Part shown: positions 3,502 to 55,344 of the stretch, piece after piece
Layout of the letters: every line of letters starts with the position of its first letter
How positions within the stretch are numbered: position 1 is the stretch's first letter
Origin: Candidatus Omnitrophota bacterium
GTDB taxonomy: Bacteria > Omnitrophota > Gorgyraeia > 2-01-FULL-45-10
Direction: 5' to 3'
Assembly (NCBI GenBank): GCA_041650935.1
Contig: JBAZKH010000002.1
Coordinates: forward strand, 64,372-128,371
Length of the DNA stretch: 64,000 nucleotides
Translations under genes and position numbers: made by a program
The notes under the pieces: generated by a model
Databases searched by the model: none
What the model was told of the DNA's origin: nothing
The model's input: the letters and a program-made list of their open reading frames with translations, nothing else

Positions 3502-3586
3502 GCGCGGGTGGTGGAACTGGCAGACACGACAGTTTGAGGGGCTGTTGGGGCAACCCTTGCAGGTTCAAGTCCTGTCCCGCGCACCA
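3502..3586 (+). tRNA. tRNA-Leu (anticodon GAG), type II with long variable arm
   Basis: Acceptor stem GCGCGGG/CCCGCGC. Anticodon stem ACAGT/GCTGT, loop TTGAGGG (anticodon GAG). Long variable arm, T-loop TTCAAGT, discriminator A plus CCA. Confidence 0.85.
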
Positions 3587-3704
3587 TTTTAGTCAGTACG
3601 AGTATGGACTTGAAGCGAGCGAGCGCCGAGCAAAGCGAGGAAAAGCGCTATGCGCGACAGCGAGCGAGGTGAGGTTACGCAGCCGCCTATGGCGGCGTAG
3701 TAAC

Positions 3705-3725
3705 CAAGTCCTGTCCCGCGCACCA
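3705..3725 (+). repeat. Exact 21-bp direct duplicate of the tRNA-Leu 3' end (CAAGTCCTGTCCCGCGCACCA, identical to 3566-3586)
   Basis: Read directly from the sequence. The two copies bracket a 118-bp GC-rich segment (3587-3704). Confidence 0.8.
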
Positions 3726-3811
3726 TACTTCGCTCCTAAGGCAGTCAAATAGAGTAGAGCTTTGCCCTACGAAGCTCTACCCTTATCTAAGCGTCTTAAG
3801 AGCGAAGTAGG
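3726..3811. repeat. Repeat R, copy B. Starts immediately after the duplicated tRNA-Leu 3' fragment and ends 1 nt before tRNA-Glu.
   Basis: Same termini (TACTTCGCTCC...GAGCGAAGTAG) and core as 2650-2745. Internal hairpin GTAGAGCTTTGCCCTACGAAGCTCTAC. Confidence 0.5.
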
Positions 3812-3889
3812 GGCCTCATCGTCTAGCCTGGCCTAGGACATTAGGTTCTCAGCCTAAAGACTGGGGTTCAAATCCCCATGGGGCTACCA
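3812..3889 (+). tRNA. tRNA-Glu (anticodon CUC)
   Basis: Acceptor stem GGCCTCA/TGGGGCT with two G-U pairs. Anticodon stem TTAGG/CCTAA, loop TTCTCAG (anticodon CTC). T-arm TGGGGTTCAAATCCCCA. Discriminator A plus CCA. Confidence 0.75.
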
Positions 3890-3929
3890 TATATTCTGCC
3901 TCGAACCAGAGAGGCAGAGAAAATCAGCT

Positions 3930-36717: not shown

Positions 36718-37951
36718 TCACAAGCTACCTTCCGGATGGAAGCGTATTAAGCTCGGAGAGTATCTTACCGAAATTAGCGATCGCAATAACACAATCAAAG
36801 ATAACGGCGCGCCCGTTCTGAGTGTCACAAACAGACCCGGTTTTTCGATATCAGAGGAGCATTTTTACAAAAAAGTGTTTAGTAAGGATCTGTCTAATTA
36901 CAAAATTATTAAGAGAGGGCAGTTCGCCTATAACCCTTCAAGGGTCAATGTTGGCTCTATAGCACGCCTGAAGGAAGTCGATAAAGGGCTACTCAGTCCT
37001 ATGTATGTTACATTTGAGACCAAGATGGGTCTAAATGAATCATACCTGGATCATTGGATACTCAGTCCTCGCTTTAGAAGCCTTGTCAAGGCTGGCACGC
37101 AAGGTAGCGTAAGGAATTCATTAAATTTCTCTGCTCTTGCAGATTTCCCATTTTACCTTCCACCTGATGAAGAGCAAAAGAAGATAGTTGAAATCCTTGA
37201 TCGTATCGATCTTGTCATCGACCAAACCCAAGCAATTATTGATCAAACTCAAACTCTCAAGAAGGGTCTCATTCAGGAGTTATTCACGCGCGGGATTCCG
37301 AGTAAGAAAAAAAAGTTTATAAAAAGTGAACTTGGGGAAATTCCAGAAAAATGGCAAATTTTAAGGTTTGAAAATATCGTTGCTGACTATAGAAATGGAA
37401 TATATAAACATGAAAGACATTATGGAGCTGGAGTTCCTTGCATCAGAATGTATAACATATTTGATGGCAAGGTTAATACTCGAAATACACCATTAGTGAA
37501 AGCAAGCAAGAAAGAGTTGGTTGATTATGGTTTATTACCAGGGGATATATTAATTAATAGAGTAAATAGTTTAGACCAAGTAGGTAAGGCTGGTATTGTG
37601 AGAGAAGACTTAGGACCGGCTGTTTTTGAAAGCAAGAATATTAGGGTAAGAACAGACGGGTCAAAATGTCTTCCCGAGTATTTAATTACCTTTTTATCAT
37701 CTTCTCTATATTTAAGACAGATGAAACGTGGAATAAAAGCAGCTGTGCAACAGGCAACTATTAATCAAGACGATTTAAATCGAATAAAGATTAGCTTACC
37801 GCAAATAGAAGAGCAGCAGGTCATTATTAATCTTATGCAAAAGATTGATTTAGATATTCAAATTAACCAGACAACATATAATTTTTATCACGAAGTCAAA
37901 TCTGCAATTATGCAGGTCCTTTTGACTGGCGAGGTAAGAATTAAAAAATGA
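36707..37951 (+). CDS. hsdS: Type I restriction-modification specificity subunit, full-length (two target-recognition domains)
   Basis: 414 aa. Two target-recognition domains separated by a central conserved helix, and a C-terminal conserved helix. Overlaps the hsdM stop. Confidence 0.8.
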   Translation: MGNSHKLPSGWKRIKLGEYLTEISDRNNTIKDNGAPVLSVTNRPGFSISEEHFYKKVFSKDLSNYKIIKRGQFAYNPSRVNVGSIARLKEVDKGLLSPMYVTFETKMGLNESYLDHWILSPRFRSLVKAGTQGSVRNSLNFSALADFPFYLPPDEEQKKIVEILDRIDLVIDQTQAIIDQTQTLKKGLIQELFTRGIPSKKKKFIKSELGEIPEKWQILRFENIVADYRNGIYKHERHYGAGVPCIRMYNIFDGKVNTRNTPLVKASKKELVDYGLLPGDILINRVNSLDQVGKAGIVREDLGPAVFESKNIRVRTDGSKCLPEYLITFLSSSLYLRQMKRGIKAAVQQATINQDDLNRIKISLPQIEEQQVIINLMQKIDLDIQINQTTYNFYHEVKSAIMQVLLTGEVRIKK

Positions 37952-37961
37952 GAGGTGTGAA

Positions 37962-39032
37962 ATGAGCGACTATTCTAAATTATTCGAGGCAATATTAAAG
38001 GAGTCGAAAAACGCTAACGGAGCCTTTGGGCAGCTCCTTGACTCCTCAATAAACATACCGGAAGGGATCCGGTCTACGGCTAGTGATAGCCATAATCATT
38101 TGCGAGAATTTTTAGAAGGTGAGCATAAGCGAGATTCGACCTTTCCGCGGGTGTTATCCATAAAAGATGATGATTTCTTGGGAGGTTCTTTTGCAAGACA
38201 TACTAAGATATGGCCGCTGGATGATATAGATATATATTTCCCGTTGGATGGGTTTAATCTGTCTTATCTGCAAAACGGCTATAGGTTGCCATATACCGTT
38301 GTGTCAGATGGCGTGTTATCAAATAACCCATTGTTAGGTAGCCGCTGGACGATCGGAATTTATATATCGTCTTCTAAGTTAGTGACAGAATTTGCAGCAG
38401 TTCTTAAGCGGCACTATCCTGATACTAAAGTTAAACCCGATGGACAATCTGTTGCTATAAGGATGACCCAGGGTGAAACGTCCGATGAAGAAGGTTTGGG
38501 ATACGATATAGTTCCCTGCTTCTCATTGCAGCCGGATAACAAGACGGAAAGCTCTTTTTACCTTATACCCGATGGAAAAGATAACTGGACAAGGACTAAC
38601 CCTAGGATTGACACTGAGATAGCGGAAAAATTACACGTCGCTAACAATAAAACATATAGGAAAGTAGTTAAAATTGTGAAATATTGGAATAAAGAAAAGT
38701 TTCGTAGCATATTACCTTCCTATTATATTGAATTGGCTATAGCAAAGGGCTACATACAGAAAAATAAAGAGGGCGAGAATATAAACAGCCTTTCTTATGG
38801 TGTGGCAGTTGGATTCTGGGCTCTTAATGAGGCTATTAAACAGGGTGGTCAAGACTCATTTCTGCCATTGGCGCCCAAGGTTTACCCGGGACAATTAGAC
38901 GAAGGGCATAAGTTAATAATAGGTGCAGCCCACTCTGTTTCTCTTCAGGCTTGGGATGCTGAGAAAGCTGGCAATCAAGATCAAGCGATAAGTCACTGGA
39001 AGCGGATTTTTGGTGATACGTTTGGAGCGTAA
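37962..39032 (+). CDS. cGAS/DncV-like nucleotidyltransferase (CD-NTase-like). Candidate CBASS cyclase.
   Basis: 356 aa. GGSFARHTKIWPLDDIDIYF gives the GS-x11-[DE]h[DE]h motif. Third acidic residue at GYDIVPC. C-terminal VVKIVKYWNKEK resembles the OAS/cGAS KxW helix. RBS GAGAGGTG. Confidence 0.55.
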   Translation: MSDYSKLFEAILKESKNANGAFGQLLDSSINIPEGIRSTASDSHNHLREFLEGEHKRDSTFPRVLSIKDDDFLGGSFARHTKIWPLDDIDIYFPLDGFNLSYLQNGYRLPYTVVSDGVLSNNPLLGSRWTIGIYISSSKLVTEFAAVLKRHYPDTKVKPDGQSVAIRMTQGETSDEEGLGYDIVPCFSLQPDNKTESSFYLIPDGKDNWTRTNPRIDTEIAEKLHVANNKTYRKVVKIVKYWNKEKFRSILPSYYIELAIAKGYIQKNKEGENINSLSYGVAVGFWALNEAIKQGGQDSFLPLAPKVYPGQLDEGHKLIIGAAHSVSLQAWDAEKAGNQDQAISHWKRIFGDTFGA

Positions 39033-39042
39033 AGGATAAGCC

Positions 39043-39864
39043 ATGAAATTAACAGACCGATTAATCGAAGCTATGAGATCCGAGTTTGGTAAGAGCAAGA
39101 GATGGTATCATAGAAGTATTTGTGCAAGCTTAGGGATGTTGCTACTATCAGTAATCCTGGTTCCTTGTTCGTCCGGCATATCCGCAGTCATATTAGGGAT
39201 GGGCTTATTTATCTTACCGATGCTCTTATTTGTATCACGCGAATTTTCATTAGAACATCAGGATCGCGCTGAGTATATTAGGCGCTCTCTTATGTTGGCA
39301 GATGCTCTCGATCATAAGCCATCAAAAATTGAATTAGCTCAACTCAAAATCGACGTGGGAAGCATAGACAGAAGCGAGCCATTATTCGATAAACGTTATT
39401 ACGACTCTAAAATAGCTGTTGGGCCGAGTAGATTGATTGATATTTTAGCAGAATCAGCATTTTTTACGCATAACCTAAGTAAGCGTGTAGCCTATATTTT
39501 AGGGGGCATAATTTGTGTCGGCGTTGTTGGTCTATTTTTTGTCCTTTATATGCTTCTTAGTATACCTGTCGGGCATGAGATATCCTTGGTGGTTGCCAAA
39601 TGGGCTGCTCTAGTTATGTCATTCTTAGCAGCAGGAGATTTTTCATATTTATTTCGTAGATCTTTTTGTTTGTCCATAGCTTCCAAAAATGTGTTAAGTA
39701 AAAGCGATGTGTTCATAAAGAATGGAAATATTTCTGCAGAAGATGCAATGGAATTGGCAGATGAATATAACTGCGCTGTTATACAGTCGCCGCCAATTCC
39801 GGGTGCAATTTATAAGTACATGCTCAAATCATTGAATGAAGCATGGCGAAAGAGGCAATCATGA
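39043..39864 (+). CDS. Multi-pass membrane protein. Candidate CBASS membrane effector.
   Basis: 273 aa. Four hydrophobic segments (LGMLLLSVILVPC, VILGMGLFILPMLLFV, IICVGVVGLFFVLYMLL, AALVMSFLAAG). Immediately follows the nucleotidyltransferase. Its stop overlaps the hsdR start. Confidence 0.45.
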   Translation: MKLTDRLIEAMRSEFGKSKRWYHRSICASLGMLLLSVILVPCSSGISAVILGMGLFILPMLLFVSREFSLEHQDRAEYIRRSLMLADALDHKPSKIELAQLKIDVGSIDRSEPLFDKRYYDSKIAVGPSRLIDILAESAFFTHNLSKRVAYILGGIICVGVVGLFFVLYMLLSIPVGHEISLVVAKWAALVMSFLAAGDFSYLFRRSFCLSIASKNVLSKSDVFIKNGNISAEDAMELADEYNCAVIQSPPIPGAIYKYMLKSLNEAWRKRQS

Positions 39865-42842
39865 CCAGTAAAGGTTGGAACGAGTTACACTTATCAGAAG
39901 ACTCGACCGTTGAGCTCCTGCAGGCTCTAGGGTATACGTTTGTCCCCCCTGAGCAATTGGAGACAGAACGAGGTAGCCTTAAAGAGATAGTGTTGACCTA
40001 TCGCCTGGAGAAGAAGCTCAAAGAGATAAATCCTTGGCTTTCAGATGAGAATCTTAAAAAGGCGGTTCGTGCCATAACCACTGTTCCAGCAACGAGTCTT
40101 ATCGAGGCAAATGAAAAGATTTATACGTCTTTGGTTCATGGTGTTTCCATTGAGCAGGATATAGGCGATGGGCAAGGCAAGAAGGGTCACAGCGTATCCT
40201 TCATTGATTTTGATCACCCAGAGAAAAATGAGTGCGTAGTTACCCGCCAATTTAAAGTTGCTGGGCCAAAAGAAAATATTAAGTGCGATGTTGTCGTCTT
40301 TATTAACGGTATCCCTGTTGTTTTAATAGAGTGTAAAAATCCCACGATTCTTGATCCTATTAATAAAGCAATCGAGCAGCTTTTTAGATATCAGGAGCTA
40401 AAAGAAGAATATAAAGATAGGGGCGCACCTAAGCTATTCGAAACCATGCAGCTTCTTATAGCCACGTGTGGGCAGCAGGCAAAATATGCTACCGCTTATA
40501 CTCCATATCGTCATTATCTCGAATGGAAGGTTCCATATCCGATCAGCCTCGATGAATTAAATGAAAAATATACCAAAAGATTGTTTGGAAGGACGCCCAA
40601 TCCGCAAGATATTCTCATATATGGCCTGCTTGAAATCAGCAATCTGCTTGATATAATCAGAAATTTTATTTCTTTTGAGGTTGAGGGTGGGAAGACCATA
40701 AAGAAGATAGCTCGCTATCAGCAATTCATAGCTGTCAATAATGCCATCAGAAGAATTCAGAAGGAGAAAAGTTCGAAGAAGCGCGGAGGCGTTATCTGGC
40801 ATACTCAGGGCTCAGGCAAGTCTCTTTCTATGCTTTGGCTTGCTGTTAAGCTAAAGAGATGTAGAGAGCTTGAAAATCCCACCCTAGTTATTGTTACGGA
40901 TCGCGTAGATCTTGATAATCAGATTGTTGGAACATTCCAAAGATGTGGTTTCCCGAATCCGGCTCAGGCAAAGAGCGTAGCTAATCTGCGCGAGCTTATT
41001 AGGCAGGGGAATGGGCAAACAGTCATAACTACTATTCAGAAGTTTCAAGAAGCATCCGAAAATACAAGACATCCTGTGTTGTCAGAGGCAGAGAATGTAT
41101 TTGTGATGGTGGATGAAGCGCATAGAACACAGTATAAGAATTTAGCAGCCAATATGAGGCAGGCATTACCTAATGCGTGTTTCTTTGGCTTTACAGGCAC
41201 GCCAATAGATAAGAAAGATCGTAGCACTATACAGACCTTCGGGCCGTATATCCATACTTATACAATCGAGCAAGCCGTACAGGATGGGGCTACCGTCCCC
41301 ATTTATTATGAAAGCAGGCTTCCTGATGTTCATGTACAAGGTGAGAATCTTGATACCATTTTCGACAGATATTTTCAGGAATATAGCGAAAAAGAACGTG
41401 AAGAGATAAAGCGAAAATATGCCACAGAAGAGATAATTGGCCTTGCGTCCTCTAGGGTGGAAGCCATATGCCTAGATATTATTGATCATTATGAAAAATT
41501 CATCATGCCAAATGGCTTTAAGGCTCAGATTGTAACTCCGAGCAGAGAAGCTGCTATTATGTACAAGGAGATGCTTGATAAGCTCAGTGGTCCACCATCA
41601 GCAGTTTTGATATCAGGTAGTAACAATGACCCACAGCGGCTTAAGAAGCATCACAAGACTCAGGCTGAGGAGAAGGAGATAATTCGTAGTTTTAAGGAAG
41701 ATCCCGTTGAAAAATTAGCCATTATTATTGTCTGTGACAAGCTTTTAACTGGTTTCGATGCTCCTGTGGAACAAGTAATGTATATCGATAGCCCTTTAAA
41801 AGACCACACGCTCCTACAGGCGATAGCACGTGTAAATAGAACCGCAGACAAGAAAGACTACGGCCTTGTAATTGACTATTGGGGTATTTCAAAAGATCTA
41901 CAAGAGGCGCTTATTGTATTTCAACCTACTGATATAGTAGGAGCGTTAACTCCAAAAACGGATGAATTGCCAAGGCTTGAAGCACGTCATAGAATTGCTA
42001 TGCATTTCTTTGATAAAGTGACCAGAGATGATCTTGAGACATGTATAAAAATAGTAGAGCCAGAAGATGTAAGGGCAGAGTTTGATCTTGCATTCAGACG
42101 TTTTGCGCAGAGTATGGATATGGTTTTACCAGATCCTGCAGCATTACGGTATAGTTCTGATTTAAAATGGCTAGGCAAGATTAGAAATGCCGCGAGAGCT
42201 CGTTTTAGAGACTCTTCCCTAGACTTATCGAGTTGTGGTGCAAAGGTGAGGCAGCTTATCGAAGAACACATAAAAACCGATGGCGTACAGAGGCTACTTG
42301 AGCCAGTTTCCATTTTTTCAAAGAAGTTTGATGAATTTGTTGAAAACCTTACTACACCAGAAGCAAGGGCGAGCGAAATTGAACATGCTATGCGGCATGA
42401 AATCCACGTTCATCTTCAGGAAGACCCTGTATTTTTCGAATCTTTAAAAGCGCGTCTTGAGAAGATAATCGAAGAGAGGAAGCAGCAAAGGATAGATGCT
42501 GTTGAAGAGCTCAAACGCCTAAATTCATTAGTTGAGGAAATGCGTAATATTGGCAAGGTGGCCGAAGACCTAGGTTTCACAGAGACAGAATATGCATTCT
42601 ATAAGATGTTAAAGGCAAGTAGTGGCAAAAAAGATGACAATAGCTATGAAGCTTTGGCCCATTCAATCGTTAAAGCTTTAGAAAATCTGGCAGTTATAGA
42701 TTGGGTGCATAAAGATGACGTTCAGCGAGAAATGCGTAGGCAGATAAAAAGTATTCTTCGTTCAGGAGGTTATCAATTTGAAGAGATCGAAATCTTGATT
42801 GCCAAGATTATGGATTTAGCGAGGGTAAGACTGGCCAAATGA
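39843..42842 (+). CDS. hsdR: Type I restriction-modification endonuclease subunit
   Basis: 999 aa. PD-(D/E)xK motif VVFINGIPVVLIECK. Helicase Walker A HTQGSGKSL. DEAH (MVDEAHRTQ). Motif VI QAIARVNR. Confidence 0.9.
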   Translation: MAKEAIMTSKGWNELHLSEDSTVELLQALGYTFVPPEQLETERGSLKEIVLTYRLEKKLKEINPWLSDENLKKAVRAITTVPATSLIEANEKIYTSLVHGVSIEQDIGDGQGKKGHSVSFIDFDHPEKNECVVTRQFKVAGPKENIKCDVVVFINGIPVVLIECKNPTILDPINKAIEQLFRYQELKEEYKDRGAPKLFETMQLLIATCGQQAKYATAYTPYRHYLEWKVPYPISLDELNEKYTKRLFGRTPNPQDILIYGLLEISNLLDIIRNFISFEVEGGKTIKKIARYQQFIAVNNAIRRIQKEKSSKKRGGVIWHTQGSGKSLSMLWLAVKLKRCRELENPTLVIVTDRVDLDNQIVGTFQRCGFPNPAQAKSVANLRELIRQGNGQTVITTIQKFQEASENTRHPVLSEAENVFVMVDEAHRTQYKNLAANMRQALPNACFFGFTGTPIDKKDRSTIQTFGPYIHTYTIEQAVQDGATVPIYYESRLPDVHVQGENLDTIFDRYFQEYSEKEREEIKRKYATEEIIGLASSRVEAICLDIIDHYEKFIMPNGFKAQIVTPSREAAIMYKEMLDKLSGPPSAVLISGSNNDPQRLKKHHKTQAEEKEIIRSFKEDPVEKLAIIIVCDKLLTGFDAPVEQVMYIDSPLKDHTLLQAIARVNRTADKKDYGLVIDYWGISKDLQEALIVFQPTDIVGALTPKTDELPRLEARHRIAMHFFDKVTRDDLETCIKIVEPEDVRAEFDLAFRRFAQSMDMVLPDPAALRYSSDLKWLGKIRNAARARFRDSSLDLSSCGAKVRQLIEEHIKTDGVQRLLEPVSIFSKKFDEFVENLTTPEARASEIEHAMRHEIHVHLQEDPVFFESLKARLEKIIEERKQQRIDAVEELKRLNSLVEEMRNIGKVAEDLGFTETEYAFYKMLKASSGKKDDNSYEALAHSIVKALENLAVIDWVHKDDVQREMRRQIKSILRSGGYQFEEIEILIAKIMDLARVRLAK

Positions 42843-43621: not shown

Positions 43622-44398
43622 ATGCAATTTCAATATTATGACCTAGGTAATCTAAATGGCGGAGAAATAGTTGAGGTTATTCTTTCAGGGAACTCCGCTA
43701 ATGTCAGATTGATGGACAGTTCAAATTATAGTAGCTTTAAAAATGGTAGACATCATACATATTATGGTGGACTTGCAAAAAGTTCCCCCGTTAGGATTCC
43801 TGTCCCAAGATCTGGGCACTGGTATGTGACTGTTGATTTAGGCGGATATCGTGGTACGGTAAGAACATCGGTTAATGTTTTGCCAGGCGCGCTTCCTGAG
43901 TTACGACAAGTCCCGCTATCGAGCGTTCCAACTCTTCGCTTGGATAGAGATTATACTAATGGTCAATTTGTAGAAAGAGAGGAACATAGGGAATACGATG
44001 TTTTTGTTTCTCATGCATCAGAAGATAAGGATGAAGTGGTGCGGCCTTTAGCTATAAAGTTACAATCAAAGGGTCTGAAAGTCTGGTATGATGAGTTTGA
44101 GTTAAAAATCGGAGATAGTCTTAGAAGAAAAATTGATAAAGGACTTGCAAACAGTCGATTCGGGATAGTTGTACTTTCAACCGCATTTATTGGCAAGGGC
44201 TGGGCAAATTATGAATTAGACGGAATTGTAACAAAAGCAGTTTCTGGCCAACAAGTGATTCTTCCAATTTGGCACAATATAACAAAACAGCAAGTCATTG
44301 ATTATAGCCCCTCCCTCGCAGATAAGCTTGCAAGGAATACAGCAATAAATACTATTGATGAGATAGCGGAGGAGATATATGGGGTTGTCAAAAGTTGA
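43622..44398 (+). CDS. TIR-domain protein with an N-terminal DUF1883-like domain
   Basis: 258 aa. C-terminal half YDVFVSHASEDKDEVVRPLAIKLQSKGLKVWYDEFELKIGDSL... is a classical bacterial TIR. The N-terminal 100 aa (QYYDLGNLNGGEIVEVILSGNSANVRLMDSSNYSSFKNG...) recalled as DUF1883-like. Confidence 0.65.
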   Translation: MQFQYYDLGNLNGGEIVEVILSGNSANVRLMDSSNYSSFKNGRHHTYYGGLAKSSPVRIPVPRSGHWYVTVDLGGYRGTVRTSVNVLPGALPELRQVPLSSVPTLRLDRDYTNGQFVEREEHREYDVFVSHASEDKDEVVRPLAIKLQSKGLKVWYDEFELKIGDSLRRKIDKGLANSRFGIVVLSTAFIGKGWANYELDGIVTKAVSGQQVILPIWHNITKQQVIDYSPSLADKLARNTAINTIDEIAEEIYGVVKS

Positions 44399-46370: not shown

Positions 46371-47648
46371 ATGAAGATTCAAAAAGTAAAAGTTTCAGAA
46401 ATCAACCCCGCTGTTTACAATCCTCGTATTACACTTCAGCCAGGCGATGCCGAGTATGAGGGTCTTAAGAAAAGTATCCTAACGTTCGGCCTGGTTGAGC
46501 CACTTGTTCTAAATAAGCGCACAGGCAACCTTGTCGGTGGTCACCAACGGTTGAACATACTTATCGCTGCTGGATTTGAAGAAGTAGAGGTAAGTGTCGT
46601 AGATCTCGATCCTACGCAGGAAAAAGCTCTTAATCTCGCCTTAAACAAAATCCAGGGCGATTGGGACAATGAAAAGCTCGCGGTCTTACTAGAGGAGCTA
46701 ACCAAGATCCCTGACTTTGACATCGGCCTCACGGGCTTTGACTTGCCGGAAATTAGTGAAATCCTGGATAAAGCCGAAGATGCCAGGGAAGATGAGTTCG
46801 ACCTCGATAAAGAGCTCGATAATTTAGGTAATGCCGTAACTCAAAAAGGCGACCTTATTCTTCTCGGCAAACATAGGCTACTGTGTGGTGATTCTTCAAA
46901 TCCAGAAGATATAAAGAGGTTAATCGGTGATGAAAAGGTTAACCTGATTTTTAGCGATCCGCCATACAATGTCAATTACTATGGTGGCAATCGACCGGTG
47001 GATAACGTTCGCCCAAAAAAATCGCGTGATTGGAATAGGATTTATAACGATAATTTGAGCCAGGCAGAATACGAAAAATGGCTTAAAACGATCCTTAAAA
47101 ACGTGACTCCATATCTTGCGCCGGGCGCGCCTTGTTATTTGTTTAATGGGTCGGCCCAATTTGGGTCTATGTACCAGATGCTTACCGAGCTGAAATTTCA
47201 TGTTTCATGCGTAATAACTTGGGCAAAGGAAAGCTTCTCCATCGGTTATGGCGATTATAACCAGCAGACCGAGTTTTGTCTCTACGCCTGGAAAGAAAAT
47301 AATGGTGCACATAATTGGTATGGCCCTACAAATGAGTCAACCCTCTGGCAGATAAAGCGAGACCATACCGCCAGCTATGATCACCCGACCCAGAAACCTG
47401 TCGCTTTGGCTCACCGCGCGATAAAGAATAGTTCCAAACGGGGGGACGTTGTCCTGGACATGTTTTTGGGTTCGGGCACCACCTTAATCGCGGCAGAGGG
47501 CTTGCATAGGGCATGTCTTGGGATCGAGATTGATCCTCATTATTGCGATGCCATAGTGCGCCGCTACATTTCTTGTATAGGTAAGAACAAGGTACCAGCG
47601 GAGCTTGTGAAAAAGTACTATAGCGAGGCGCAGCATGTCAGTAAATAA
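46371..47648 (+). CDS. ParB-like nuclease domain fused to a beta-class DNA methyltransferase (paralogue of 28086-29345)
   Basis: 425 aa. GGHQRL. IFSDPPYNVNYYGG. FLGSGTT. Collinear with the first copy. Confidence 0.75.
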   Translation: MKIQKVKVSEINPAVYNPRITLQPGDAEYEGLKKSILTFGLVEPLVLNKRTGNLVGGHQRLNILIAAGFEEVEVSVVDLDPTQEKALNLALNKIQGDWDNEKLAVLLEELTKIPDFDIGLTGFDLPEISEILDKAEDAREDEFDLDKELDNLGNAVTQKGDLILLGKHRLLCGDSSNPEDIKRLIGDEKVNLIFSDPPYNVNYYGGNRPVDNVRPKKSRDWNRIYNDNLSQAEYEKWLKTILKNVTPYLAPGAPCYLFNGSAQFGSMYQMLTELKFHVSCVITWAKESFSIGYGDYNQQTEFCLYAWKENNGAHNWYGPTNESTLWQIKRDHTASYDHPTQKPVALAHRAIKNSSKRGDVVLDMFLGSGTTLIAAEGLHRACLGIEIDPHYCDAIVRRYISCIGKNKVPAELVKKYYSEAQHVSK

Positions 47649-48312
47649 CGATCAGGCCAATAAAGAGCAGCCTATCCTTGTGCTGATCCAAGACATAAAG
47701 GAAGGCCGCGTAGCGCCTGAAGTTGTCGATAAGGACTTGCGCCAGCAGTGTGTCGAAGTGTTTTTGGGTGAGGGGTACACCGTTGCCTCAATAGCTCAGA
47801 TATTTAAGAAGTGCGATAAGACAATCCGGCGCGATATCGAGGATATAAGAGCACGCAACGCCATTACGCCGGATATAGACCTGGCCAAAAAGACCATAGG
47901 TGAGATGGTCGTATATATGCATACCCACCGGGCGTACCTAATGCGCCTTGCGCGCTCAAAAGATGCCTCGCTGGCCGAAAAGGCCCAGGCCGAATACTTG
48001 GCGGCTCGTATAGGCCTAGAACTGATCGCCAAGCTGCAAACCCTGGGGTTCCTGCCTTTAAAACCTCAGGAGATCGTTGCTGATATCTCGCATCATGTAG
48101 CTGCCGATAATGAGAGTTCGTTCGGAGAATTGAGATCTGAGATAGTAGAGATAGAGAGAATTTCGAAGGAATCCGGAGAGTTGACGCCGGAAATGGTAAA
48201 AGAGCTTGAGAATTTAAAAAAGAGAATTGAAAAAGCGGAAATACAGGATAGCGTAATCAAAATATCATCCCATGCGGATGAGGAAGGGAAAAAAGATGAA
48301 AAAGATAATTGA
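47635..48312 (+). CDS. HTH-containing TerS-like protein (paralogue of 29360-30034)
   Basis: 225 aa. VASIAQIFKKCDKTIRRDIEDIRARNA helix-turn-helix. Confidence 0.4.
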   Translation: MSVNNDQANKEQPILVLIQDIKEGRVAPEVVDKDLRQQCVEVFLGEGYTVASIAQIFKKCDKTIRRDIEDIRARNAITPDIDLAKKTIGEMVVYMHTHRAYLMRLARSKDASLAEKAQAEYLAARIGLELIAKLQTLGFLPLKPQEIVADISHHVAADNESSFGELRSEIVEIERISKESGELTPEMVKELENLKKRIEKAEIQDSVIKISSHADEEGKKDEKDN

Positions 48313-49873
48313 AACTATCAGTAGCGAGATCGGGAGGATCAGAAGGAGGGCGGGAATGGATTTCATCAGTTTCCGTAACTTTTATTTCCAACATTATAAT
48401 AAAAGTCCGGATGGCGAATTCCAGAAAGAATTATCGCAAATCCTCGCCAATATGACTACAAGAAGAGGCGCGCGATATGCAATAGCGGCGCCGCGTGGAT
48501 TCGCAAAAAGCACGATCGTAGGATTACAGTATGTGATCTATTGTATTTGCTATAAGCTTGAGGACTTCATTGTGATAGCCTCCAGCACAAGCAGTCAAGC
48601 GACGGATTTTTTGCGGCATATTAAAGAGGAGTTCGAGAACAACGAAAGATTAAAATTGGACTTTCCGGAAGTTTGCGAAGTCGGCAGTAAGCTAAGCCCA
48701 CCGCGGTGGACACAGAGCGAGATCATCACCAGTAATGACGTGAAGGTCATCGCTCTAGGCACGGGACAACAGTTAAGGGGTCGCAGACACAAAGAATCGC
48801 GGCCTACGTTAATAGTTCTTGATGATATCGAAACCGATGAGTCGGTGGAGAATCCAGATAGTCGTTATAAGCTGGAAGATTGGATAAATAAGACCGTCCT
48901 AAAGGCAGGTGATGCTAGAACCAATGTTATAATTATTGGTACGTTGCATCATCCCGCATCTCTACTGGCAAAATACACTGACCCCAAACAATCGCCCGGT
49001 TGGACCAGTAAAATATACAAGGCGATAATATCGCATGCCGAACATGTCGAGCTATGGGAAAAATGGAAGCGGATACTCTCAGGTAAAGAAACCTACAATG
49101 GGGAATTTGGTAGGGATGCGGCATTTGCGTTTTATAAAAAGCACGAAAGTACTATGCTTGAAGGAGTGAAGCTTTTATGGCCGGACTTCAAGAGCTATCA
49201 CGATCTTATGTTGATGCGGGAACAGGAGGGTTATTCCAGCTTCGATTCCGAAATGCAAAACGAACCCATTAACTCAAGGGACTGCGCCTTTAATATGGAA
49301 GAGGTGAGCTATCGAGAGGATGAATTTGAATCCGAGGAGCATTTAATGCGTGCAATGCGGCACGAAATACTATGTTTTGGGTCATGCGATCCGAGCCTCG
49401 GCAAAGAAGGGAAACAGAGCGACGACTCAGCCATAGTTGTTGTTGCTTGGAATGCTGAAAGAGGGAAGATCTATGTATTGGAGGCCGATATTGCCAGGCG
49501 CAGCCCCGATAAGACGATAGAAGATATACTGGCCCATCACATGAAGCATGAGATTGTGGGGTTTGCCTTTGAGACAAACCAATTTCAGGAGATTATGGCA
49601 AAGGATCTTATAAAGCGCGCCAGGGAAAGATGTATACCGGTACGGCTTAAGGAGGTGAGAAATACCGGGGATAAGCTTGCCAGGATACAGTCGCTTCAGG
49701 CCCTTATCAAGAGCGGTGCTATAGTATTTTCCAGGAAGCATCAGACCTTGCTTGAGCAGCTACGGTATTTCCCTAAGGGCCCGCATGACGATGGGCTGGA
49801 TGCATTGGAGATGGTAGTGCGGTTATGCTATAAGCCACCAAGAGACTACAGATTGTTATCTATACCGTGGTAA
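48272..49873 (+). CDS. Phage terminase large subunit (paralogue of 30031-31728). The true start may be the internal Met at 48296.
   Basis: Walker A AIAAPRGFAKST, Walker B LIVLDDIETDE. C-terminal nuclease GSCDPS. RBS GAGGAAGGG lies upstream of ATG 48296. Confidence 0.7.
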   Translation: MRMRKGKKMKKIIETISSEIGRIRRRAGMDFISFRNFYFQHYNKSPDGEFQKELSQILANMTTRRGARYAIAAPRGFAKSTIVGLQYVIYCICYKLEDFIVIASSTSSQATDFLRHIKEEFENNERLKLDFPEVCEVGSKLSPPRWTQSEIITSNDVKVIALGTGQQLRGRRHKESRPTLIVLDDIETDESVENPDSRYKLEDWINKTVLKAGDARTNVIIIGTLHHPASLLAKYTDPKQSPGWTSKIYKAIISHAEHVELWEKWKRILSGKETYNGEFGRDAAFAFYKKHESTMLEGVKLLWPDFKSYHDLMLMREQEGYSSFDSEMQNEPINSRDCAFNMEEVSYREDEFESEEHLMRAMRHEILCFGSCDPSLGKEGKQSDDSAIVVVAWNAERGKIYVLEADIARRSPDKTIEDILAHHMKHEIVGFAFETNQFQEIMAKDLIKRARERCIPVRLKEVRNTGDKLARIQSLQALIKSGAIVFSRKHQTLLEQLRYFPKGPHDDGLDALEMVVRLCYKPPRDYRLLSIPW

Positions 49874-49942
49874 TCTAGCGAAAATAGCCCTAGGCGCGGT
49901 TGATCGCCTAGGGCTATTTTTATATTATTGTGCAGTTAAGGA

Positions 49943-50185
49943 CTATATATTGCGCTCGGCTTCTTTTATTAGCTTGCTTAATGGCTGGTTTAAAGCAGAG
50001 GCGACCTTATAGGCGGTACCGATTCCTACATCTACTTTGCCAAGCTCTATTGAACTGACGTAGGTGCGGTGTATTTCGGCCTTATCCGCAAAATCCTCCT
50101 GGGAAAGACCCATATTATGGCGTCTTCTTCTGACTGCCATCCCAAATTCTTCCCTAAAGCTATTAACCTTGCCTTTGTCTTTCAT
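49943..50185 (-). CDS. XRE/Cro-family HTH transcriptional regulator
   Basis: 80 aa. MGLSQEDFADKAEIHRTYVSSIELGK helix-turn-helix. Confidence 0.6.
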   Translation of the reverse strand: MKDKGKVNSFREEFGMAVRRRRHNMGLSQEDFADKAEIHRTYVSSIELGKVDVGIGTAYKVASALNQPLSKLIKEAERNI

Positions 50186-51032: not shown

Positions 51033-51176
51033 CAGCAATTATCCTACTAGCCTTTCAGCGATCCTACCCGTTGCATAAAATCCGTTGAAGGCTGACTATC
51101 GAGGAGTATAATACATATATATAGGGACAGAATAAAGAAGGATGCCTCAATTGTACGCTATTAAAAAGGGATAACA

Positions 51177-53093
51177 ATGCCTCAAGACAGAATAAGTGGA
51201 GCCGATGCAGATAGGTATGGCAGTGAGACTGCGAGGCTGATAGCAAAAGCGATTGGAGCTATATCTATCAGCGAAACCAGTAATGAATTTGAATTAGATA
51301 ACAGTAAAATAACAATCAGATGCGCTAGAAAAAATACGCAAAATTTGGGTGCCCCGTATAAACTATTAGAAAGAGTAAGTGCTGTAATAGCTGCTTTAGA
51401 GCAAGAAAATGGCGATTATAAATTATACGAAATAACCCCGGCTAAATTTAAGGAAAAGATGAGGCCCACAGGAAGCACAGGGCCATCTGCCGGAAGAGTT
51501 GGGCTAGTGAGTAAATCCTTATTTATTAATGAAGGGAAATTCATCCGTGAAGTAAAATTGAATACAGAAGAAAAAAATAAAATATGGAGGATGGCTTTTC
51601 GTTGTGGAAACCAGGGTCAATCATTGTGGGAGGAATGCAAAAAATATAATGTTGCAGCAATCACTTATAGCCCTTTGGAAAAATTCGATTTAACAAATCA
51701 CAAGTATAATGAACCAGTCGAGCTATGGAGCAAGCTTTCCTCCTCTTCACAAAAATCAAGCCTAAGACACGTTGCCTACGATATGAAAAATGGTGATACG
51801 ATATATGTTAAAGAGGGACCGAAAATTATTTGCAAAGGGACTGTCTTAGGTAAGCCAGATCGGGCATATGTATTTGATCAGAGTTTTCGAATAGTTGATC
51901 ATAATGGTACCCCATGGCCTCACCAAGTGCCTGTAGCGTGGGAAGCTTCTTTTGAACCCGTTGGTGTGCTGCTTGGAGCAGAACAAAATGCCGTTCTGGA
52001 GCTGAATGGTGAACGATTAAGTAAATTACAAAAGGCCCTTTCAAACAATGGGGCAGTTGGTGTTGAAAACAAAATTGCCAGGATCTGTTGGAATGATCAT
52101 GGATGGCAAAGACCTTCCGGACGCGATGGTAAAAGTAAGAATAAAGATGCGTATGAGTTTAAAGTAGGATATGGACATGAGGAGTGGTTGCTTGATACAG
52201 AAAAATTAGTTGATGGCTATCATTATGGATACTTACAGCCAATTGGAAAGGCTTGGGATAAATATCAAGGCCAAACTTTTAATATTTCTCTCTATTCGAT
52301 AAACGACGATTCGCGCCAGCGATGGTGGATTGGAACCATCAGAAATGCCGAGGTTGTATCGCCAGAGGAATCGAAAGAAGTTTTAGAATATTATAAGAAA
52401 AAAGGCTGGCTGCAAGAAATGATAGACCAAATAAAAAATATAAATGGTGACGAGAGAGATTTTGGTAAAAATGCTCCATTCGCATTTACGAATATTAAAT
52501 TTAAGCCAGCCGATTGGGAATTGCTCGATCCCCCGCAGCGTATTTCAAATAAGGACAAATCAGTATCATCTACTTACTATGTGCTACTGAATAAAGTAAA
52601 AAATCCAGATTTGGAGCTACCATTTGGCGATGATCCAACTTTTACCCCAGGGCATACCATAAGAGATGAAAAAGGCATTGCATATTATGGACAGAGAAAA
52701 AGCGAGATTGACCGTTTCCATTATAAGATGCAGAATAACTCATATAAGCAGTTAGTAGATATGTATGGGCATGATAATGTTAGCACCGAACGCCAGATAG
52801 GCATTGGAGCAGCCGTTGATATTTCAGTTAAAGATGGAGATGGTGAAATCTTCTATGAATTTAAAACCAGTAATTCCATAAAAGCATGTATACGGGAAGC
52901 CCTATCGCAACTTCTCGAGTATTCATATTATCCTGATACGGAAAGAGCGAAGAAATTAATTATCGTATCGCAAAATCCAATAACTAAAGATGCCAAAAAT
53001 TATTTAATTAAGATTAGAGAGCATTTTAAAATACCTGTTTATTACAAGCAATATAATGTAGATAAGAATTGCTTGGAAGAAGATGAATATTAA
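51177..53093 (+). CDS. Large hypothetical protein with a C-terminal PD-(D/E)xK nuclease-like motif and a possible PUA/EVE-like N-terminal region. Candidate modification-dependent restriction enzyme.
   Basis: 638 aa. C-terminal AAVDISVKDGDGEIFYEFKTSN (D...E-x-K). N-terminal GDTIYVKEGPKIICKGTVLG beta-barrel-like segment. No ATPase motifs. Confidence 0.3.
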   Translation: MPQDRISGADADRYGSETARLIAKAIGAISISETSNEFELDNSKITIRCARKNTQNLGAPYKLLERVSAVIAALEQENGDYKLYEITPAKFKEKMRPTGSTGPSAGRVGLVSKSLFINEGKFIREVKLNTEEKNKIWRMAFRCGNQGQSLWEECKKYNVAAITYSPLEKFDLTNHKYNEPVELWSKLSSSSQKSSLRHVAYDMKNGDTIYVKEGPKIICKGTVLGKPDRAYVFDQSFRIVDHNGTPWPHQVPVAWEASFEPVGVLLGAEQNAVLELNGERLSKLQKALSNNGAVGVENKIARICWNDHGWQRPSGRDGKSKNKDAYEFKVGYGHEEWLLDTEKLVDGYHYGYLQPIGKAWDKYQGQTFNISLYSINDDSRQRWWIGTIRNAEVVSPEESKEVLEYYKKKGWLQEMIDQIKNINGDERDFGKNAPFAFTNIKFKPADWELLDPPQRISNKDKSVSSTYYVLLNKVKNPDLELPFGDDPTFTPGHTIRDEKGIAYYGQRKSEIDRFHYKMQNNSYKQLVDMYGHDNVSTERQIGIGAAVDISVKDGDGEIFYEFKTSNSIKACIREALSQLLEYSYYPDTERAKKLIIVSQNPITKDAKNYLIKIREHFKIPVYYKQYNVDKNCLEEDEY

Positions 53094-53117
53094 CCTTAAC
53101 AAGGAAATGAGGTTATT

Positions 53118-53864
53118 GTGCTAGAACGAGAATTTGAAGATATTCTGTCAACATATCCAGAATTAATAGAGGAAGGGTTGTCTTTAAAAGGCCGTCAGGT
53201 GAACACTGATAGAAAATTCATAGATTTACTTTTTAAGGATAAAACTGGCCAGGACTTGATAGTAGAGCTGAAAATAGGAGTAGCAAAAAGAGAACATGTT
53301 GCTCAGTTGTTAGATTATGCTGGATATAAAATAGCTGAAGGTAAAGTGCCTGTTAGGATTATGCTTATTGCGAATCGAATCCCTGAAAATTTTAAACATT
53401 CTTTCGATTATTTCGGGTTTGAATATAAAGAAATAACCATTGATAAATTGCACGATTTCGTACGCATCAAAAATGATCAAAACCTATTAAAGATCTTTGC
53501 AGCCCCTGTAGAAAATGAAAAAAGCTTTGTGACCGAGCCCACACGCACAGATCTTTCGGTTAGCAGGCCGAGCCTAGCCATAAAAACACCTATAAATGGG
53601 ACCAATCGCAATGAAACCAGACAAGCGATGGCATCTCGTATTAAATCCGGACAATTGTTTAATCAAGCCAAATGCGCCATAGAGCTACTTAATACATCTC
53701 AGGACCCCGTAGATATGAAAAGAATAATCTCTTTTATGTCTACGAAAGGCTACCATTCAAAAACTTACTATGATTTATTTAATTCATTGGTCGATTCCGA
53801 CCTTGTTGAGCAGGTAACTCTTGGCGGTAGAAAGGCATATCGGCTAAGAAGAGATGAGTTATAG
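53118..53864 (+). CDS. NucS/DUF91-like RecB-family nuclease domain protein with a C-terminal winged-helix-like region
   Basis: 248 aa. EEGLSLKGRQVNTDRKFIDLLFKDKTGQDLIVELK...QLLDY matches the NucS C-terminal nuclease pattern (E..G...D-x-L...ELK...Q..Y). Confidence 0.5.
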   Translation: MLEREFEDILSTYPELIEEGLSLKGRQVNTDRKFIDLLFKDKTGQDLIVELKIGVAKREHVAQLLDYAGYKIAEGKVPVRIMLIANRIPENFKHSFDYFGFEYKEITIDKLHDFVRIKNDQNLLKIFAAPVENEKSFVTEPTRTDLSVSRPSLAIKTPINGTNRNETRQAMASRIKSGQLFNQAKCAIELLNTSQDPVDMKRIISFMSTKGYHSKTYYDLFNSLVDSDLVEQVTLGGRKAYRLRRDEL

Positions 53865-54108
53865 CAAAAATAGATTTACGCCTTAGCTTCGAGAAGCCCC
53901 ATATAGATAGGGGCTGCAATTCTCAATTGCTAAAGCGGGAATGGAGATATTGAATATGGAAATAAATATTCGTATTCGAATCTCTGTTAAGGCCCTAAGA
54001 GTTATTTTATCATTGCTCTTATGGGCAGTGATAGGATAGCCCTGAGGTCCGGGCCACGGAGGGGTTTAATAACCCCTCCGTGGTTTTTTAAATTTAGGAA
54101 AATGATAT

Positions 54109-54882
54109 ATGAAAGATAGCTTAAAGTTTCACCCGCTAGTAGAGAAGACTAAAAAAGGCATCGATAAATCTCATATATACAGAGGATGTATTAAGAATAA
54201 ACATGGCGATATTAATATTCGAATCGGACCAAATAGCCTTGATCGAGCATTAAAAATCATGGATTCGGTAATTAAGAAACTTGAAAAGAAAAGCGCGAAA
54301 GTATTTCTAAATGAGCAACAGTATAAGAGCGCTACTTGCGTAACCATTTTTGAAGAAACGCTTTCAATAGATCTATATGAAAAAATAAATATTACCAAAA
54401 AGAAAGAGATGCGAGATCGTTTTGATTACGATCCTTATAACTATACTCCTAATGGGAATCTTGTGCTTCGCATCAAAGACGGTCCTTATGAGATTCGTAG
54501 CGAGTGGGAAGACGGCAAGAGGAAACAATTAGAGGATCACATAGATGATTTTATCGATGGATTGTTTCTTGCAGCAAAGAAGGGGAGGGCTGATAGGTTA
54601 GAAAGAGAGCGCGAACATCGGAAATGGGAAGCGGAAGAGAGTAGGAAAGAAAAAGAAGAGCAGGCAAGGCAGCGCGAACAGGCAGAGCTCGATTCGCTAG
54701 AAAATGAAGCAATGCGATGGCAAAGAAGCAAAATAATCCGAGCTTATATAGAAGCCACTACGGATGCATATATAAAAAAGAACGGCAAAATTGATCCGGG
54801 AAGCGAATTTGACCAATGGAAAACATGGGCTAACGAGCGCGTGAATCGTCTCGATCCTCTTTACGGCAAATTTCCTGCATAA
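54109..54882 (+). CDS. Hypothetical protein with a charged coiled-coil segment
   Basis: 257 aa. RADRLEREREHRKWEAEESRKEKEEQARQREQAELDSLENE. No enzymatic motif recognised. Confidence 0.3.
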   Translation: MKDSLKFHPLVEKTKKGIDKSHIYRGCIKNKHGDINIRIGPNSLDRALKIMDSVIKKLEKKSAKVFLNEQQYKSATCVTIFEETLSIDLYEKINITKKKEMRDRFDYDPYNYTPNGNLVLRIKDGPYEIRSEWEDGKRKQLEDHIDDFIDGLFLAAKKGRADRLEREREHRKWEAEESRKEKEEQARQREQAELDSLENEAMRWQRSKIIRAYIEATTDAYIKKNGKIDPGSEFDQWKTWANERVNRLDPLYGKFPA

Positions 54883-54898: not shown

Positions 54899-55108
54899 GT
54901 GTTGAAAGATGGGGAAAGGATGGGCTCAATGAAAACACCCGAGTATAGCAGTGAATCAGGCCATAATCTAGAAGACTGCGAGAATGAAATAGCCGAAATA
55001 CTAGCCGACGCAATGTATGAGCACATTAAAAAAAGCCCGCAAAAACCAGATCAAAAGGTAAAAGATAAAGAACATGAAAGCCAGATAAAGCAATGTCCGG
55101 GTCGGTAG
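54899..55108 (+). CDS. Hypothetical small acidic protein
   Basis: 69 aa ORF. No motif. Confidence 0.2.
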   Translation: MLKDGERMGSMKTPEYSSESGHNLEDCENEIAEILADAMYEHIKKSPQKPDQKVKDKEHESQIKQCPGR

Positions 55109-55331
55109 GGATGGACATTACTATCCCATAGTATTTCAGTAAGTTACGTAATTTCAGGCCAAAAATGACCGGACAAAACGGACACGTTTTCGCTCATTTT
55201 GTCCGTTTCGGACACCAAAAATCACCGAGGAATACTATCTCTCTATTCGAAATTTTCTTGATATGATAAGGTATTATGGCTATAATGCACCTGTGTAAAT
55301 AAGAGATACCTTGCCGTAGTGATACGGGCAA

Positions 55332-55344
55332 GGGCTACCATATA
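55332..55344 (+). repeat. 13-bp exact copy (GGGCTACCATATA) of the 3' end of tRNA-Glu plus 4 flanking nt (identical to 3881-3893). Candidate right-hand att remnant.
   Basis: Read directly from the sequence. Preceded by the hairpin CCTTGCCG...CGGGCAAGG and followed by a terminator. Confidence 0.4.

Follow-up and report, generated by a model that had tools for sequence, protein, structure and literature searches.

The YenY4I group of modification-dependent restriction enzymes, about 600 amino acids long, combines an EVE domain, a DUF3427 domain and a PD-(D/E)XK nuclease, and the McaZI group consists of DUF3427 and PD-(D/E)XK (Lutz et al. 2019, PMC6765204). Both groups restrict the 5-hydroxymethylcytosine (5hmC) phage T4gt, and the two-domain McaZI form is the commoner of the two (PMC6765204). 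In a second set of enzymes a reader of the PUA superfamily is joined to an HNH nuclease, as in the EVE–HNH proteins VcaM4I and TspA15I and the SRA–HNH protein TagI (PMC7897488, PMC6212794), and in a third a PD-(D/E)XK nuclease is joined to a winged-helix domain, as in the Type IV enzymes DpnI, FcyTI and Psp4BI (Helbrecht et al. 2024, PMC11037411). Here we analyse three adjacent genes, which we call A638, B248 and C257, in a 64,000-nucleotide stretch of DNA from a Candidatus Omnitrophota bacterium (contig JBAZKH010000002.1; the whole stretch is referred to as the window). A638 is a single-gene modular protein whose C-terminal two-domain module, a putative target-recognition domain followed by a predicted PD-(D/E)xK nuclease, forms the conserved functional core.

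All three genes lie on the plus strand: A638 at 51177..53093, B248 at 53118..53864 with a GTG start, and C257 at 54109..54882. They encode proteins of 638, 248 and 257 amino acids, exactly as placed by a preliminary description made from the sequence. The source is a metagenome-assembled genome, and the A638 protein is identical to an NCBI entry assigned to the same phylum. Because each has many homologues (191 clusters at E ≤ 1e-3 for A638, 36 for B248 and 41 for C257), we regard them as real genes and not chance open reading frames (ORFs). Searches of Pfam, NCBIfam, PHROG and PADLOC gave no ATPase or methyltransferase family match for any of the three, in agreement with what had been noted for the block from the sequence.

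We set the domain borders of A638 by pairwise comparison with 120 homologues together with an AlphaFold model of mean predicted local distance difference test (pLDDT) score 81.8. The C-terminal domain 4 (amino acids 505-638; 52689..53090, plus strand) is confidently modelled as a PD-(D/E)xK nuclease with an intact predicted active site. Its model has the alpha-beta-beta-beta-alpha-beta core at pLDDT >90 (helix 514-530, strands 535-541, 545-553 and 556-562, helix 568-584, strand 591-598), with D548, E561 and K563 on strands 2 and 3. Across 60 homologues D548 and E561 are invariant and H515, E538, K563 and Q578 are kept in at least 90%, and the conservation of D548, E561 and K563 was repeated in sets of 118 and 30 sequences. 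The D...EFK motif that the preliminary description had singled out corresponds to D548...E561-F-K563, conserved and on the modelled core. The check for a nuclease fold that it had called for gave the PD-(D/E)xK topology and catalytic residues in A638, and conserved catalytic residues in B248. Foldseek matched domain 4 in the PDB to Hjc, PvuII, XisH, Can2/Card1, NucS and the catalytic domain of the BisI-family enzyme Eco15I, with probabilities of 0.9-1.0 to Hjc, PvuII, XisH, Can2 and Eco15I and E-values that were all ≥2e-3. Sequence searches of Pfam, NCBIfam, PHROGs, PADLOC and the PDB with A638 returned only marginal nuclease matches. PDDEXK_9 scored 13.4 bits against a Pfam cut-off of 25.5 for A638 and 26.7 bits for the homologue P0038, other members of the family matched Mrr_cat, PDDEXK_4 and NERD weakly, and a family profile aligned the catalytic motif of A638 with that of Cas4 (PDB 4r5q).

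Upstream of the nuclease is domain 3 (amino acids 296-500; 52062..52676, plus strand), an unannotated, putative target-recognition (reader) domain that carries the motif CWN..W..PSG...GHEEW. Its invariant residues are W305, N306, W310, P313, S314, G315, K319, G331, G333, H334, E335, E336, W337, D340, H349, Y350 and W411. Modelled alone by AlphaFold, the domain reached a pLDDT of 88.9 and a predicted template modelling (pTM) score of 0.81. The coherent sub-threshold fold matches to this model were all PUA-like, namely YTH and EVE in the PDB and ASCH in BFVD (E 0.07, template modelling (TM) score 0.32-0.37), a likeness that we take as a hint only. An hhalign comparison of the domain-3 profile with domain 2 of A638 found no relationship.

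The N-terminal part of A638 comprises domain 1 (amino acids 11-130; 51207..51566, plus strand) and domain 2 (amino acids 137-290; 51585..52046, plus strand). Domain 1 has a confident alpha/beta model (pLDDT about 78-96) and no match in a Pfam search, and domain 2 is beta-rich but poorly modelled (pLDDT about 50-70). The beta-barrel-like N terminus suggested from the sequence therefore does not describe domain 1, and it survives for domain 2 as beta-rich character at low model confidence. The further suggestion of a PUA- or EVE-like reader at the N terminus gained no support, as no sequence or profile search links this region to PUA or EVE. Domain 2 is DUF8426 (PF28530) by precomputed annotation only; the annotation is found on relatives that have domain 2, and not on P0029 and P0038, which lack it. 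The domain also weakly matches the N terminus of one PADLOC PDC-S02 model (E 0.0011). A literature search found no papers on DUF8426 and only listings for PDC-S02. When the whole A638 model was compared with the PDB by Foldseek, the nuclease domain dominated and domains 1-3 gave no matches.

Searched against 1.84 billion proteins, a profile of domain 3 recovered at least 1,220 representative clusters from bacteria and some archaea at E ≤ 1e-3, and 563 of these reached E ≤ 1e-30. The profile also located 234 loci in 185,579 species genomes, distributed over the Gamma-, Beta- and Deltaproteobacteria, Bacteroidota, Nitrospirae, Planctomycetota, Elusimicrobiota, Omnitrophota, Patescibacteria and one Woesearchaeota genome. 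The domain is rare in viruses: 2.9 million viral contigs yielded 8 loci, and 50,697 phage records yielded none. A nuclease of 130-160 amino acids directly follows domain 3 in 213 of 248 members, and 62 of the 248 have no N-terminal extension and consist of domain 3 and nuclease alone. The extensions of the others form at least 26 sequence clusters with no relation to one another, including an EVE domain in P0095 (E 0.0074, with the alignment covering the whole domain) and an SRA-like domain in P0033 (E 0.05; PF26348 in precomputed annotation). PDB profile searches with the two largest clusters of partner domains found nothing. The domains of A638 itself also recur in other combinations: P0029 has domain 1 joined directly to the C-terminal module, P0047 and P0064 have domain 2 and the module, and in P0028 an HNH nuclease takes the place of the module behind domains 1 and 2. 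In the Vibrio gigantis plasmid protein WP_102392639, domain 3 is joined to HNH_2 (Pfam 3.2e-12). The non-catalytic domains of A638 are thus interchangeable and also occur with a nuclease of another type.

The genes immediately beside A638-family members vary among 77 loci, with none present throughout. Type I HsdS (8) and HsdM (7) occur most often, followed by integrases or transposases and assorted nuclease and ATPase genes. Among the 25 commonest families listed for 124 immediate neighbours, HsdM (7) is the sole methyltransferase; a cognate methyltransferase is not an obligate neighbour of the family, and the three-gene block contains none. One copy on a Vibrio tubiashii plasmid is flanked by GIY-YIG and AbiH genes. 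The family gene spreads by horizontal transfer, and its contexts are those of cargo, of defence-type genes and of Type I restriction-modification (R-M). In many Bacteroidota genomes a form of ~540 amino acids lies between same-strand genes for proteins of ~400-440 and ~490-540 amino acids (L045, L047, L048, L051, L052 and others; further loci with this arrangement are L066, L069, L078 and L083). With HsdS and HsdM the most frequent neighbours overall, this subfamily seems to lie within Type I R-M operons. All family members that we saw are publicly named 'hypothetical protein'. The C-terminal module of A638 matches no PADLOC (2023) model, and the Pfam copy searched gives only DUF8426, an accessory domain, so defence-annotation pipelines built on these libraries would probably miss the family.

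On this evidence our preferred reading, in which we place about as much belief as doubt, is that A638 is a self-contained modular DNA endonuclease, most likely with a Type IV-like restriction function, and that the three genes are independent cassettes within a mobile element. Domain 3 and the nuclease module would recognize and cut the target, and the two N-terminal domains would be one of many interchangeable accessory sets that aid recognition. What the non-catalytic domains would bind is some feature of foreign DNA. The most plausible candidate is a modified base, which may be flipped into an aromatic and acidic pocket formed by W305, W310, H334, E335, E336 and W337, and the PD-(D/E)xK nuclease would then cleave nearby. 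Such action would need no partner protein, ATPase or cognate methyltransferase. We infer the role of domain 3 in target recognition, and the dependence on modification, from the parallel with YenY4I and McaZI (PMC6765204). The Type IV-like function raised in the preliminary description is accordingly reasonable for A638, in view of the shuffling of modules and partners (EVE, SRA-like, HNH), and does not extend to the block as a whole. The A638 family is a sizeable, unannotated take on the reader–nuclease theme. We also put forward, as a tentative proposal, that domain 3 represents a previously undescribed class of nucleic-acid (modified-base) reader that, together with a PD-(D/E)xK or HNH nuclease, makes up a widespread single-protein restriction family of bacteria and some archaea (at least 1,200 clusters), with specificities adjusted by the exchange of N-terminal co-sensor domains.

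Several observations weigh against this preferred reading. Domain 3 matched no recurrent Pfam family at E ≤ 10 in searches with 25 domain-3 sequences, Foldseek comparison with the PDB gave nothing significant (E > 1, TM about 0.2), and hhalign found no relationship between the domain-3 profile and an EVE domain; for domains 2 and 3 alike, no significant sequence, profile or fold tie to any known reader emerged. The EVE match of P0095 and the SRA-like match of P0033 each fall below Pfam thresholds, and most N-terminal partner domains were unmatched when representatives were searched against Pfam, so that a reader role for them is assumed. Type I R-M operons enclose about 10% of the family members, and the element that carries A638 has two methyltransferases; a modification-dependent enzyme would need to tolerate all of these. 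The gap of 24 nucleotides and the shared terminator leave room for local co-operation between A638 and B248. Finally, the invariant H334, E335, E336, D340 and H349 of domain 3 could equally form a second catalytic site or a site for a small ligand.

The same H/E/E/D/H cluster would suit a ligand or metal site in a different kind of protein, an infection-triggered nuclease of the abortive-infection type, in which domain 3 or the N-terminal domains sense a phage protein or nucleotide and free an autoinhibited PD-(D/E)xK domain to degrade DNA indiscriminately. We judge this account unlikely, though it deserves consideration: a variable N-terminal sensor with a constant effector is typical of many protein-sensing defence proteins, PUA-like domains appear able to sense free modified nucleotides, as outlined in a preprint (bioRxiv 10.64898/2026.01.15.699771), and the Vibrio tubiashii plasmid copy adjoins an AbiH gene. 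Set against this, the members that lack any extension would require sensing to reside in domain 3, the recognizable partner domains (EVE and SRA-like) are readers of DNA bases, and domain 3 has two kinds of DNA nuclease as partners, a pattern shared with known Type IV enzymes.

We next consider whether A638 acts together with its neighbours. Homologues of A638 with 55-79% identity occupy the same backbone in the related loci L001/L002 and L003. In L001 the gene that follows, in the place of B248, encodes a non-homologous protein of 474 amino acids, and a C257 homologue lies two genes 3' of the A638 homologue. In L003 the following gene encodes 665 amino acids, and homologues of both B248 and C257 are absent. 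This 665-amino-acid protein (L003 10145-12142) has a weak N-terminal match to a GHKL-type HATPase_c domain (E 0.002) and is possibly another defence-type cargo gene. C257 homologues are found without A638 or B248 in L009, L010 and L012, where they are preceded by a DUF4238 gene, a gene for an AAA_22–PRTase-CE protein and an AbiEii/AbiGi gene, respectively. B248 homologues of 56-58% identity are found without A638 and C257, beside genes for a helicase, WYL, AAA_15/21 and MazE proteins. B248 and C257 are adjacent only in L004 (84-86% identity), where they lie 3' of a 418-amino-acid gene and a small HNH gene. At none of 80 loci from other genomes was a B248 or C257 homologue found within 8 kb of an A638-family gene.

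Comparison of the DNA gave the same picture. The A638 cassette is common to L001 from 51162 to 53092 (79.6% identity) and to L003 from 51156, so that homology to other elements opens 15-21 nucleotides before the start codon and ends at the stop codon. B248 and C257 form a separate DNA segment common to L004, and C257 alone forms another shared segment. A638, B248 and C257 are three separately acquired cassettes and not one system. The preliminary description had taken them as a three-gene block, speculatively as a new system, and had held that the proposal would fall if the genes were unlinked in other genomes, which is what we found. Co-occurrence of A638, B248 and C257 across unrelated genomes, as expected of a conserved multi-gene defence system, was not observed. 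We reject a three-gene system on the neighbourhoods, the 0/80 co-occurrence and the cassette boundary between A638 and B248.

A nuclease system of several genes, made up of all three or at least of the A638–B248 pair, is in our judgement very improbable, although the expression signals at this locus would allow it. The 24 nucleotides between A638 and B248 compare with 244 between B248 and C257. A promoter-like site upstream of A638 (TTGAAG-16-TATAAT; 51085..51112, plus strand) comes from a consensus scan alone, a GAGG ribosome-binding site stands 7 nucleotides 5' of the GTG start of B248, and a sequence scan placed a strong terminator-like hairpin with a 16-bp stem and a T run 3' of B248 (54051..54086, plus strand). 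A638 and B248 are thus probably transcribed together, and C257 separately, possibly with a 69-amino-acid ORF that follows it. This ORF (54899..55108, plus strand), between C257 and the end of the element, is of uncertain status and had no significant match in a Pfam search. Beyond the close spacing, with one promoter-like site before the pair and one terminator after it, a multi-gene arrangement is favoured by homologues of A638 and C257 occurring together in L001 and of B248 and C257 in L004, and by PDC-S02, which seems to join a domain-2-like N terminus with a B248-like NucS nuclease and so gives a weak hint of fusion. The match of A638 to PDC-S02 is, however, marginal. The replacement of B248 by another gene in L001, the loss of both neighbours in L003, the absence of linkage at the 80 other loci, the solitary B248 and C257 homologues and the cassette boundary between A638 and B248 all stand against it. 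We propose that the co-transcription of A638 and B248 here results from the position of insertion only. At this locus it would have been a mistake to treat neighbouring cargo genes carried by a mobile element as a single 'system'.

B248 would be a second, independent single-gene nuclease. Amino acids 3-113 form a NucS_C/DUF91 (PF01939) domain that scored 41.6 bits in Pfam against a curated cut-off of 24 (1.4e-10), so the NucS/DUF91 pattern recognized earlier by eye (IDLLFKD...LIVELK...QLLDY) is genuine. The E-value against the NucS structure 2vld in the PDB was 0.002 for B248 alone and 1.4e-6 with a family profile, and D36, E50, K52, Q63 and Y67 are invariant among 33 relatives. The protein begins at the nuclease domain, its residues 3-113 aligning with NucS 127-237, and has no NucS N-terminal domain. 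With that domain missing and a score of 53 bits against a cut-off of 216 for the NucS equivalog model (NCBIfam NF003270), far under the threshold, B248 is not NucS itself; by sequence it adds a new member to the DUF91/NucS_C nucleases. The nuclease (amino acids 1-120) is followed by a variable linker and a conserved C-terminal domain of ~85 residues (about amino acids 160-248). This tail had no Pfam or PDB sequence match and no winged-helix match; its pattern of conservation looks like a helix-turn-helix (HTH) and a wing, and it may bind DNA. In PADLOC, B248 matched PDC-S11 (8e-12) and PDC-S02 (1e-5) through its nuclease domain only.

C257 has a stretch rich in E, R and K at about residues 150-205, where the coiled coil proposed from the sequence would lie. 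Searches of Pfam, NCBIfam, PHROG, PADLOC and the PDB, including a PDB profile search, gave no match for it, and no homologues were found in viral contigs. Where its homologues have a named source, that source is always Candidatus Omnitrophota. C257 recurs in the cargo regions of this family of elements beside changing neighbours, and is apparently unrelated to A638 and B248 and restricted to Omnitrophota.

We read the host of the three genes as a ~23-kb integrative element of the serine-recombinase type (about 32.0-55.34 kb), the second of two related integrative elements that appear to stand in tandem by tRNA-Glu, with the first at about 3.9-32.0 kb. Both carry a large serine recombinase, a ParB-N6/N4 methyltransferase, a ~225-amino-acid protein and a terminase-large-subunit-like gene as paralogous sets, and the repeat segments compared between them have roughly 71-77% DNA identity. 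In the second element DUF2924 accompanies the recombinase. The backbone of this element runs from the ParB-N6/N4 methyltransferase (46371-47648) through a 225-amino-acid protein to the terminase-large-subunit-like gene (48272-49873), which takes its label from a Terminase_6C annotation in L001, and a divergent HTH regulator on the minus strand (49943-50185; Pfam HTH match). This block (46371..50185), whose gene order recurs in L001, L003 and L009 and of which the first element has a paralogous copy, lies directly 5' of the cargo slot. After the divergent HTH gene come a gene for a PDZ protein and then A638, B248 and C257. In the first element the terminase-like gene is directly followed by the end of the element, with the slot empty; we therefore regard the stretch from the terminase and HTH genes to the right end as an optional cargo slot.

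The right boundary of the second element is marked by GGGCTACCATATA (55332..55344, plus strand), an attR-like copy of the 3' end of tRNA-Glu that exactly repeats 3881-3893; these two are the only exact copies within the window. By itself the repeat of this 13-mer is not statistically significant. DNA homology to the related element in L003 ends at 55343, and because it stops at the same base as the 13-mer we kept the assignment as an attachment site. Low-GC DNA extends from about 3.9 to about 55.5 kb and GC content climbs from 0.40 to 0.53 past about 56 kb, in keeping with the earlier placement of the genes at the right end of an accessory region.

Other cargo genes of these elements recur as well: a protein of ~195-211 amino acids (66-82% identity; L001 13818-14453, L003 12154-12732 and L012 10205-10792), a DUF2971 protein (72% identity; L003 12771-13688 and L009 9776-10684) and a ~326-amino-acid protein (88% identity; L004 3947-4582 and L009 8787-9767). 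Since they appear in different combinations among Omnitrophota elements, the slot is a mosaic of shuffled cassettes. DNA comparison also revealed a conserved non-coding element of ~90 nucleotides (55090..55190, plus strand) with an inverted repeat ATGTCC/GGACAT and direct repeats of CGGACA. Its copies in L009 (10660-10780), L001 (14415-14506) and L003 (13647-13707 and 15755-15860) stand after differing cargo genes and at the right end of the element. It has the look of a terminal or junction sequence that repeated insertions left behind, or of a site bound by a regulator or recombinase. An Rfam search of 49.8-55.7 kb, which includes this element, found no RNA family.

The presence of a terminase-like gene in the backbone bears on a further explanation, that the nucleases act not in defence but in DNA repair and recombination or in the life cycle of the element, by cleaving mismatches or particular structures in the manner of NucS or by assisting terminase-dependent packaging. 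The catalytic domain of B248 is homologous to that of the mismatch endonuclease NucS/EndoMS, the nuclease of A638 resembles Hjc resolvases and Cas4, and an A638-family gene lies a few kb 3' of a terminase-like gene in three Omnitrophota loci. B248 nevertheless lacks the N-terminal domain of NucS and scores far below the equivalog cut-off, and the other A638-family loci have no terminase nearby except L054, itself from Omnitrophota and carrying P0012, the A638 homologue of L003. The family is nearly absent from viral contigs. The sporadic distribution (234 loci in 185,579 species genomes) and the position of A638 in a variable slot, outside the conserved backbone, make a role in repair or element maintenance unlikely, and we consider it quite improbable overall.

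The remainder of the window holds further cargo. To the left of the backbone, the genes of the second element include a Type I R-M operon interrupted by a SMODS-type nucleotidyltransferase gene, a YgjP peptidase, a TIR protein, a DUF2188 protein and two further genes (275 and 187 amino acids). The R-M operon (hsdM, hsdS and hsdR) lies within 35197-42842 and has two genes inserted between hsdS and hsdR, one for the SMODS-family nucleotidyltransferase (37962-39032) and one for a 273-amino-acid protein (39043-39864). The gene for the YgjP-like metallopeptidase comes next after the operon. The TIR protein (43622-44398, 258 amino acids) has its TIR domain at the C terminus and matches PADLOC PDC-S66 (1.5e-73) and ThsB-like models (1.3e-42); a PADLOC scan showed no ThsA-like partner for it. 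The cargo of the first element (6818-28000) includes large ORFs of 542, 738, 795 and 590 amino acids, and GC content there falls to 0.32-0.37 at 11-13 kb. In the tRNA cluster the last 22 nucleotides of tRNA-Leu (3566-3587) are exactly duplicated 139 nucleotides downstream (3705-3726), and a 42-nucleotide sequence 3' of tRNA-Gln (2648-2689) recurs before tRNA-Glu (3721-3762) with 93% identity; these duplications are probably scars of earlier integration or excision.

Should the members of the A638 family prove to be modification-dependent nucleases, the conserved domain at their centre would add a new reader of DNA modifications. Readers of this kind are useful as epigenetic tools, examples being MspJI, AbaSI and DpnI. 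Such a function, if true, would also shed light on the phage DNA modifications that little-studied phyla such as Omnitrophota counteract.

Against the described systems, B248 compares most directly with NucS/EndoMS (PDB 2vld and 5gke), with which it shares a C-terminal RecB-like nuclease and the catalytic D, E, K, Q and Y positions. It differs in lacking the N-terminal domain, which in NucS serves dimerization and mismatch binding, in having a different conserved C-terminal domain added, and in its sporadic occurrence on mobile or defence-type loci. Like the DpnI-type enzymes it has an N-terminal PD-(D/E)xK domain and a small C-terminal domain with an HTH-plus-wing-like pattern, a lead drawn from the conservation pattern only; unlike them, it has a nuclease of the NucS type and gave no sequence match to DpnI or to any winged-helix family. 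The matches to the PADLOC single-gene candidates PDC-S11 and PDC-S02 span ~70 of 300-360 profile positions and so reflect likeness at the level of a domain.

A638 resembles the PUA reader–HNH enzymes in joining a putative reader to a nuclease without a cognate methyltransferase, and in the shuffling of readers and nucleases seen with the HNH protein P0028, the Vibrio fusion of domain 3 to HNH_2 and the EVE-bearing P0095. It differs from them in that EVE and SRA are not detectable in A638 and the fold likeness of domain 3 to YTH, EVE and ASCH is sub-significant. The closest parallel is with YenY4I and McaZI, for which there are restriction data, the comparison on the side of the A638 family being made from sequence and models alone. 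The two differ in that no match to DUF3427 (PF11907) was found in A638 or in 25 domain-3 sequences (E ≤ 10), and in that the nuclease of A638 is nearest to the PDDEXK_9, Cas4 and NucS types and not to DUF3883/NOV_C; one of 30 A638 relatives has a NOV_C match somewhere in the protein. In architecture they are alike: the A638 family too is built as a single polypeptide of about 340-640 amino acids, with an optional N-terminal putative reader, a middle domain (beta-rich, of uncertain superfamily) and a C-terminal PD-(D/E)xK nuclease. The short two-domain form is likewise far commoner than the long one, and the genes stand alone, often in defence islands.

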